Of a stretch of 64,000 nt of DNA, positions 38,680-40,196 are shown piece after piece; the first letter of the stretch is position 1, and every line of letters begins with the position of its first letter. Under the pieces are notes generated by a model. The model worked only from the letters and a program-made list of their open reading frames with translations, did not search any database and was not told where the DNA came from. The stretch lies in assembly GCF_000026545.1 (NCBI RefSeq), contig NC_011601.1. The stretch is one strand, 5' to 3'. Made by a program: the position numbers and the translations under genes. The stretch is from Escherichia coli O127:H6 str. E2348/69. Lineage in GTDB: Bacteria > Pseudomonadota > Gammaproteobacteria > Enterobacterales > Enterobacteriaceae.

Positions 38680-40196
38680 TTAATGCAACGTTTTATCCAT
38701 CGGCACATAGCCCACATCTTCCACCAAACTCTGCCCCTGCGGTGTTAAAAACCACTCCACCAATTTTTGTGTCTCTGACGTCGTATTTTCCCGCGTTACC
38801 ATTAAGGCATCGACTATATAGGGATATTTGTCGTTGCGAATATTTTCCACAGTCGGTGCAATACCGTTAATCGCTAGCAGTTTTATATTTTTATCGGCAT
38901 TCATTTGTGTTGCGTAATAGCGGAAGGTGTAGCCTATTGCGTTGTTTGTATTACGGTATTCGGCAACGACTTTAATCATTCCCTCCATCATGCTTGCCAC
39001 TTCGGTTTCCTGCGGCGAGATCATGCGGACATTTTTCATGACCTGTGATTGCATCACTGTCTGGCTGCCAGAGTCTTCCGGGCGTTGCCAGGTCTGGATC
39101 TCCTGATCCTTACCGCCAACCGTGCGCCAGTTGGTAATTTCGCCACTAAAAATGTCACACACTTGTTGTTCAGTCAGGGAATTAACCGATTATCCGCATT
39201 GACGATGAAAACAAACGCTTCACGGGCAAATGGCGTGTACAGCAAAGTGACGCCCGATTTCTCAGCGCGTTTTTTTTGCCCATCGGAAGGTTGCGCCACG
39301 AAAATAATATCGGCATCACCGTTAACGATCCTGTTATACGCTTCTGGTGTTCGAGAGTTCGTCAGATATTCCCAGGAATGAAAATCTTCCGGTATAACGC
39401 TTAGTGCATAAAATGCAGAGGCATAAAGCGGATACGCTGCCGTAGCGCCATCGCTTCGCGGCCAGTTTTGCGTAAATTGAATTTGTGGTTTACCACGCAG
39501 TGGCGTCAGTTGATTATAAAGTTTATCGGGTCGCCAGGCCCAGGTATCAATATTTTCACGCACACCGACGCCGGGATTAAGCTGTTTATATAAATAAGCC
39601 TGATAACCAGCGACAATACCCAGTAAGAGAAGAATGAACAGAAGTAAATTACGGCAACGTAGACCGGAGGTGCCGGTTAAAGGATGTCTGGTCAGCCAGC
39701 CGTATCCCAGTGAAAAACTGATATGCGCGCCAACGGGAATAATGACTATCCACCAGTACTCACCACCGACGAATGAGACTGTAAAAACGCCCAACCAGGG
39801 AAGCATAAGGTTTGCCAACCAACCGGCTCCCATCTGGCGAAATTGATAATCTGCCAGATGTAGCGCGATTATCCAGCCAACCAAGGTTAATAGCGCGGGT
39901 AAGAGAAAAAAGCATTGTCGCCAGGCGGCTATTTCTCTTTTTTCTGGTGCGCTATCACCAGCCCACACGCGACCAGAGAAAAATATGATTATCGCCCCCA
40001 GCGTCAGCATAAAGACGTTGAGTAGAAGATAAATTGTTGGCGTAAAGAGTAAATTGCAAACCTCAAGAATAGCGGCAAGCCCGGCCCCCAGCATGGCAAC
40101 AACCGCTGCCAAAAATTGCGCCAGTATGGGGATGCCAAAAAAAGTCATTACCAGCGAGGTCAAAATCCATTTTCCGTTTTGCATTATTCTTTCCAT
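38680..40196 (-). pseudogene. Frameshifted gene for a membrane-anchored PstS/phosphate-binding-protein-like protein (yzgL-like locus)
   Basis: Two adjacent minus-strand ORFs (39174..40196 and 38680..39162) in different frames. N-terminal part is about 190 aa of TM helices, then a periplasmic binding-protein fold continuing across the junction (...FVFIVNADN | SLTEQQVCDIFSGEITNWRTVGG...). Stop TGA 39174-39176 is created by a 1-nt frameshift near 39177-39190. Confidence 0.65.

Follow-up and report, generated by a model that had tools for sequence, protein, structure and literature searches.

Between glgP (40314-42761, minus strand) and glpD (35628-37148, plus strand) of Escherichia coli E2348/69, two minus-strand open reading frames follow each other in different phases. 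The original prediction, made from the sequence alone, took them for a single gene encoding a membrane-anchored PstS-like binding protein and inactivated by a frameshift. This raises the questions of whether the two frames are indeed one gene, whether the break is a mutation or an error, and what the intact protein would do. The window, i.e. the whole stretch of 64,000 nucleotides analyzed here, matches the chromosome of E2348/69 (EPEC O127:H6) at 100% over 1721 queried bases, and the glgP-glpD interval contains three minus-strand genes in this strain (Table 1).

Table 1. Features of the glgP-glpD interval, in window coordinates.
Feature	Position	Strand	Basis or comment
Whole pseudogene	38680-40187	-	PGAP H4J01_RS01770; orthologue of intact 502-aa WP_122984432.1 (ST131)
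Upstream ORF, 340 aa	39174-40196	-	Membrane domain, linker and first third of the binding fold
Downstream frame, last two thirds of the binding fold	38680-39189	-	PBP_like_2 positions 104-265, 8.7e-19
Frameshift site	39186-39191	-	AATCGG here, AATCCGG in intact alleles
Membrane domain, about aa 1-205 (predicted)	39573-40187	-	AlphaFold2 and K+R counts
PstS-type binding domain, predicted to be periplasmic (intact protein aa 245-481)	38746-39455	-	Split by the frameshift
A8 run within the PstS-like gene, intact in E2348/69	39270-39277	-	
glgP terminator hairpin followed by T-run, directly 5' of the PstS-like gene	40274-40299	-	
255-aa gene downstream of the pseudogene, intact	37810-38577	-	Without family match
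201-aa membrane protein gene downstream, intact	37202-37807	-	Stand-alone paralogue of the pseudogene's membrane domain

One gene broken by a single-nucleotide deletion

Both reading frames are present as predicted, the longer one encoding 340 aa and the shorter one (38680-39162) 160 aa, both on the minus strand. The protein collection contained no exact match to the 340-aa ORF under either of two candidate starts. Alignment of the window with the orthologues from ST131 and O121:H19 shows that exactly one C of GATAATCCGGTT is missing. The lost base is nucleotide 1000 of the 1509-nt gene and belongs to the CCG codon of Pro334 (AATCCGG to AATCGG), the surviving C being at window position 39188. 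The frame shifts after residue 333, and the upstream ORF ends after four out-of-frame codons (RLIP) at a premature TGA (39174-39176). Intact orthologues consist of 502 aa and have the junction sequence NADNPVNSLTEQQV, which reads FVFIVNADNPVNSLTEQQVRDIFSG in the intact ST131 protein; restoring the base in the window gene yields FVFIVNADNPVNSLTEQQV, the regained residue being Pro. The junction had been reconstructed in the original prediction with a guessed proline, and this was right, as the intact ST131 protein carries the same junction with Pro.

Direct reading of the sequence shows that the downstream frame is open up to TAA at 39190-39192, and hence the two frames overlap by a few codons. 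The mechanical start of the downstream ORF is GTG at 39162, and this ORF has no signal sequence of its own. Against the PBP_like_2 model (length 267), the upstream ORF matches positions 16-102 (22.1 bits) and the downstream ORF positions 104-265 (68.7 bits). Since these coordinates are back to back, the two ORFs represent one domain cut in two, and the possibility of two separate genes was rejected on this ground and due to the uninterrupted frame of the orthologues. The break is situated at about position 103 of the model, in the conserved segment NPV..LT..QI.DIFSG. The residues at the junction had thus been predicted correctly, but not their assignment to a PstS-family linker, as the break lies inside the binding fold.

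The deletion is a real mutation

The 1721-nt stretch with the deletion is found in five assemblies at 100% and in two more at 99.9% and equal length; the carriers are E2348/69, two other O127:H6 assemblies, one monkey isolate, one pig isolate and two Japanese human isolates. The nearest allele beyond these, GMF054 (95.9%), has one base more and is annotated as intact. The occurrence of the same deletion in seven assemblies, different isolates among them, excludes a sequencing error, and the deletion is a real mutation, fixed in one lineage. An assembly artefact leaving the gene intact in E2348/69 had been raised in the original prediction, and single-base indels are indeed a common artefact of this kind. 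However, besides being shared by human, monkey and pig isolates, the deletion sits in a CC dinucleotide and not in a long homopolymer, and PGAP retains the frameshift in the revised E2348/69 assembly CP059840.2, so that we regard such an error as exceedingly improbable. In the public annotation (NCBI PGAP/RefSeq), H4J01_RS01770 is labelled [quoted passage not shown], a pseudogene, "frameshifted"; the inactivation is already on record, and the pseudogene status is not new.

It is also conceivable that the gene remains functional through programmed -1 ribosomal frameshifting, or is reversibly switched off by phase variation. According to the sequence, a -1 slip at AAT-CGG would regain the frame with Pro to Ser as the sole change, and the A8 run elsewhere in the gene is a frameshift hot spot in other lineages. 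However, inspection of the sequence revealed no slippery heptamer X XXY YYZ at the site, no Rfam element was found in 37000-40500, and all sampled intact orthologues have one uninterrupted frame. As for a phase switch, the lost base belongs to a 2-nt run, without a useful slip rate, there is no reversible repeat tract at the site, and in E2348/69 the A8 run is unaltered. Both a programmed frameshift (or RNA element) and phase variation were rejected on these grounds, and continued or reversible function of the gene by either route is very improbable.

Hence, the predicted inactivation is borne out by the indel relative to intact orthologues, the premature stop, the reproducibility in seven assemblies, the PGAP annotation and the lack of a recoding signal at the site. 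Apart from the frameshift, the E2348/69 allele contains no stops and only seven lineage-specific amino acid changes (one of them, R344C, at a nearly invariant position), compared to 12-13 lineage-specific changes in the intact ST131 and O157 alleles. With so few changes and no further stops, the inactivation looks recent.

The membrane domain

The intact 502-aa protein consists of about 205 aa of predicted membrane helices followed by the PstS-type domain. The multi-helix nature of the N-terminal part, as originally predicted, is supported by the AlphaFold2 model and by the charge distribution, though these differ in the number of membrane passes. AlphaFold2 predicts six hydrophobic helices, while K+R counts (Lys/Arg clusters are found at the N-terminus and in loops 2-3 and 5-6) favour five passes in an N-in, C-out orientation. 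The latter topology requires that the weakly hydrophobic stretch 122-166 spans the membrane a single time, which makes five passes. The helix count thus remains ambiguous, with six helices in the model and an odd number of passes needed by the charge distribution.

No Pfam or NCBIfam family and no fold match in PDB were found for the membrane domain, and it does not qualify as a member of an ABC permease family. A profile search with this domain yielded 192 cluster representatives among 1.84 billion proteins, nearly all of them 470-520 aa long, and PBP_like_2 is present in all six longest representatives, which were checked. This indicates that the membrane module occurs essentially always together with the binding domain; other architectures were rejected on the basis of these lengths and of the six domain assignments. 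Matches of about 207-215 aa end in the linker and may be fragments, so they were not counted as stand-alone copies.

The 201-aa protein encoded downstream of the pseudogene is similar to the membrane domain (hhalign probability 94.9%, E 4e-8), as is the 200-aa protein of the O157/BL21 locus (96.6%, E 6e-10), and the motif IPVG.Q..F.LGYY..R is common to the membrane domain and both these proteins. Judging from these profile comparisons, the 201-aa "hypothetical" protein is a stand-alone paralogue of the membrane domain, which is a new assignment, absent from the public annotation. As the locus holds both modules fused and apart, this points to a membrane module that acts together with the binding domain and does more than anchor it.

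The binding domain

Assignment of the C-terminal part to the PstS-family binding-protein fold agrees with Pfam, the AlphaFold2 model and Foldseek. The intact ST131 orthologue matches PBP_like_2 (PF12849) over aa 245-481 with 103.8 bits (E 1.8e-29), well above the gathering score of 27 bits. The AlphaFold2 model of the intact protein (23 homologues, mean pLDDT 83.5) shows a two-lobe structure of type II binding proteins, and a Foldseek search of PDB with this predicted structure retrieved, for its C-terminal half, the PstS crystal structures 4gd5, 4q8r and 9l8j (E about 1e-14, target-normalised TM-score 0.77-0.80). The best sequence matches of the binding domain in PDB are all PstS proteins. 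In paralogues of about 330 aa, the same domain is preceded by lipoprotein signal sequences (LISGC, LMSGC, LLAGC); given these signals and the agreeing K+R distribution, the domain is clearly predicted to be periplasmic.

The score against TIGR02136 is 118.8 bits, below the curated cutoff of 206.6 bits, and by these scores the protein is PstS-like, related to TIGR02136 and situated outside its curated boundary. For comparison of the ligand site, E. coli PstS and its ligand-contact residues served as reference, the numbering of the sequence being consistent with the known contact residues. According to the hhalign alignment, the anion motif of the second lobe is kept, R369, E371, S373, G374 and S375 corresponding to R135, D137, S139, G140 and T141 of PstS, and these residues are invariant or nearly invariant. 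The equivalent of T10 of PstS is also kept, as T249. In E. coli PstS, Asp56 discriminates phosphate from sulfate; in the profile alignment it corresponds to Ala298, in a part of the N-lobe where the columns are weak and of low confidence. The N-lobe motif is GATA, as opposed to GSTS in the nearest PstS structures (HMM alignment to 4gd5).

No Pho box was found upstream of the PstS-like gene, up to three mismatches being allowed, and no genes of ABC permeases or ATPases (pstCAB) adjoin it in the window or in the loci of Klebsiella, Salmonella, Budviciaceae and other Escherichia. Based on the score below the TIGR02136 cutoff, the apparent replacement of Asp56 by Ala, and the lack of ABC genes and a Pho box nearby, the protein is, as far as can be judged from its sequence, not a canonical PstS. 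The most likely ligand of the domain is a tetrahedral oxyanion or some phosphorylated compound, and phosphate itself is possible.

Organization of the locus

Due to the terminator hairpin of glgP upstream, the PstS-like gene needs a promoter of its own, the only candidate found being a weak sigma-70-like match at 40212-40183. The start per annotation is ATG at 40187, three codons inside the ORF start at 40196 used in the original prediction. The start codon is uncertain, as in-frame ATGs are present at both positions in the window. In most intact orthologues, PGAP places the start at an ATA one codon 5' of the equivalent of 40187 (L002 4112), a choice apparently modelled on O157, where this codon is ATG.

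For the downstream 255-aa gene, Pfam, NCBIfam and PADLOC gave no match. This gene is a conserved neighbour of the PstS-like gene in the B2-type loci (E2348/69, ST131) and the loci of the N196/O121 type. No strong terminator was found between the pseudogene and the two downstream genes, and the 255-aa gene is thus probably co-transcribed with the pseudogene. For the same reason, both downstream genes, being intact, may still be expressed in E2348/69. In strain 405 (L016), internal stops are present in both the PstS-like gene (1611-3119) and the 201-aa gene (3992-4597), and this single anecdote may reflect the co-loss of two linked functions.

The content of the glgP-glpD interval varies between lineages. 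In E2348/69 and ST131 it comprises the PstS-like, 255-aa and 201-aa genes, with an additional "YbbD family" gene in N196 and O121, while in O157 and BL21 it comprises the PstS-like gene, a gene for a 330-aa lipoprotein paralogue and the 200-aa gene. Only the first 74 or so codons of the PstS-like gene, annotated as yzgL, remain in K-12-type genomes.

Other arrangements have been observed in related loci. The "YbbD family" gene, encoding about 236 aa, is located 3' of the PstS-like gene in Klebsiella and in some E. coli (N196, L011 4134-4844); homology of its product to that of the 255-aa neighbour is unsupported (BLASTP E 0.05). In Klebsiella (L004 7829-8958) it is followed by a gene for a small lipoprotein (Pfam YbbD_head), and in Salmonella (L007 7564-8109) the YbbD-family and lipoprotein genes are apparently fused into a 181-aa ORF that looks like a deletion product. 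Some Salmonella have a second, more distant membrane-anchored PstS-like copy between ruvC and ruvA (L010 6001-7497), with 37-38% identity to the ST131 protein and adjoining a Peptidase_C92 gene. Escherichia TA054 (L009) has three tandem PstS-like genes, one encoding a membrane-anchored protein and the other two proteins of about 325 aa. This tandem locus is flanked by genes for secreted proteins of 141-142 aa (L009 2987-3412 and 8636-9064) with repeats like YRDRNGN.KGT..TDS.G..T.

Distribution, selection and recurrent loss

A search for intact orthologues in other strains, as proposed with the original prediction, identified them in ST131, O157, BL21 and many others. Homologues of full length (about 500 aa) were found in Escherichia, Salmonella, Klebsiella, Intestinirhabdus, Phytobacter, Leclercia, Leminorella and Budviciaceae. 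The tethered architecture thus exists as predicted, but it is not unusual, being the standard form of the family across Enterobacterales. In 5,426 complete genomes, the 1721-base region is present at 80% or more in 3,346, partially in about 1,300, and not at all in 771. Two further readings of the gene were considered and rejected. As for mobile element cargo, tblastn yielded no real plasmid or phage copies, the sole "plasmid" match being a 4.8-Mb chromosome record and the other matches being distant or partial. As for anti-phage defence, no PADLOC match was obtained for the PstS-like gene or its three kinds of neighbours.

The dN/dS ratio of intact alleles is 0.12-0.27, hence the protein is constrained where it is kept, and the intact alleles are under purifying selection. 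Synonymous divergence between E. coli lineages is about threefold higher in the PstS-like gene (dS 0.13-0.43, with 0.26-0.43 for intact alleles of the main sampled groups) than in the adjacent glgP (0.045-0.11), which suggests either old allele classes or recombination at a hot spot.

The gene is intact in 12 of the 16 sampled full-length loci, a sample spread down the similarity ranking with a few hand-picked records added, and thus not random. The lesions observed in other lineages differ from the one in E2348/69: a different one-base deletion at nt 783 in O121, an internal stop in strain 405, a truncation beside IS1 in strain 2013C-4991 and, in K-12-type genomes, a deletion leaving a stub. 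Clusters of truncated proteins comprise frameshifts in the A8 run, one premature end and one internal deletion. The frame change in the A8 run (GQKK to GQKNALRN...) is seen in other Escherichia lineages (P0020, P0023), and the run is a second, independent mutational weak point of the gene. Taken together, the lesions indicate that the gene is dispensable and has been lost repeatedly in E. coli lineages by unrelated events.

Consequences of the frameshift and possible function

Loss of function in E2348/69 is very likely, the locus being a lineage-specific pseudogene of an accessory chromosomal gene. The product would be a membrane domain carrying only about a third of the binding fold, a portion of its first lobe, and the remaining two thirds would be made at most as a cytoplasmic fragment without an export signal. 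As the rest of the fold would not be exported, no ligand-binding domain could form. The upstream fragment could still be made, with a residual or dominant effect.

In the intact protein, about five membrane passes would keep the two-lobe PstS-type domain on the periplasmic side of the inner membrane, its most likely ligand there being the tetrahedral oxyanion or phosphorylated compound. The working partner of this domain is probably the protein's own membrane module and not an ABC transporter. The module occurs fused to the binding domain, and the locus also encodes it separately, as a 200-aa protein beside lipoprotein copies of the binding domain. One may tentatively suggest, as a possible though doubtful reading, that the PstS-like oxyanion-binding domain and the dedicated membrane module of about 200 aa form an undescribed two-module envelope system that is not a part of an ABC transporter. 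If so, the frameshift in E2348/69 is a natural knockout of one copy in a strain with an intact stand-alone membrane paralogue.

Two other functions of the intact protein have to be weighed against such a two-module system. It could be an extra membrane-tethered phosphate-binding protein feeding PstCAB, which would account for the public label, for the fact that the best matches by both sequence and structure are all PstS proteins, and for the conserved motifs R-x-[DE]-x-S-G-[ST] and GAT. The arguments against are the insufficient TIGR02136 score, Ala in place of Asp56, the lack of an upstream Pho box (at three mismatches or fewer) and the fact that the gene never adjoins pstCAB in the loci examined; moreover, docking on PstC/PstA alone needs no dedicated, co-inherited membrane module. 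Such a role thus seems unlikely. The other possibility is a sensor, as raised in the original prediction; its helical domain would transmit the ligand-bound state to the other side of the membrane. Tethering of a binding domain to a membrane domain is a common sensor layout, and there are known solute-binding proteins that feed signalling proteins (review PMC8050422). However, the order of elements is helices, binding domain and C-terminus, with nothing after the binding domain. Pfam detects no other domain, and in particular no cytoplasmic output domain as in kinases of the BvgS/EvgS type or GGDEF-fusion sensors. The cytoplasmic loops are predicted to comprise only 13-18 residues, and no kinase or regulator gene is conserved beside the PstS-like gene in related loci. 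The sensor idea is not borne out by these data, and we consider this function quite improbable.

As a finding in one genome, a strain-specific pseudogene in an accessory region, already flagged publicly, is ordinary, although the lack of this PstS-like protein in the E2348/69 lineage is relevant to users of this reference EPEC strain. What interest remains concerns the uncharacterised family and the pairing of its two modules, fused as well as split. A conserved Enterobacterales family is labelled "phosphate ABC transporter substrate-binding protein" and yet fails several tests for that role. Literature searches retrieved no functional study of this PstS-like family and nothing specific on membrane-anchored PstS proteins. 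The retrieved mentions are a two-fold decrease of yzgL (-2.0) in a table of CpxR overexpression (PMC2731931), yzgL in a description of the glp-glg hot spot (PMC13185298), and STM3527 in a gene list only (PMC2639726), the assignment of this Salmonella gene to the family being putative. Strain pairs for functional tests are at hand, with E2348/69, O121 and K-12 as natural knockouts and BL21, O157 and ST131 as intact strains.

Comparison with known systems

The closest relative by position is yzgL (b3427) of K-12, which is the same gene at the equivalent position, immediately 3' of glgP. Its promoter region and roughly 74 initial codons are retained in the K-12-type sequence, while everything past about codon 74, together with the downstream genes, is deleted; in contrast, the E2348/69 gene is of full length with one base missing.

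The PstS proteins of the TIGR02136/PBP_like_2 type with known structures (4GD5/4Q8R from C. perfringens, 1TWY from Vibrio cholerae and 9L8J, Sll0540 from Synechocystis) share the two-lobe type II fold with the binding domain of this family, with target-normalised TM-scores of 0.77-0.80 and 20-23% identity. The motifs NPV..L(T/S)..QI.DI(F/Y)(S/T)GkItnW and R...SG(S/T) are also common to both. Unlike these proteins, the E. coli family protein scores below the trusted cutoff, has GATA and not GSTS, and has no transporter genes nearby. Moreover, its predicted anchor is polytopic, while PstS of the TIGR02136 type has a cleaved signal peptide or a lipid anchor.

PstS of the E. coli PstSCAB system is a distant homologue (hhalign probability 86.8%), with the equivalents of R135, D137, S139, G140 and T141 retained. 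Compared to it, the PstS-like protein appears to lack Asp56, its gene has no Pho box and is situated at another locus, and the protein is membrane-tethered.

Finally, as in other tethered or fused solute-binding proteins, the binding domain is covalently linked to a membrane part and would be held at the membrane surface. Such proteins include lipid- or helix-anchored ones in Gram-positives and archaea, and ABC-permease fusions such as OpuA and GlnPQ. Another binding domain fused to a membrane part is found in the TAXI-GltS fusion (PMC12344293).
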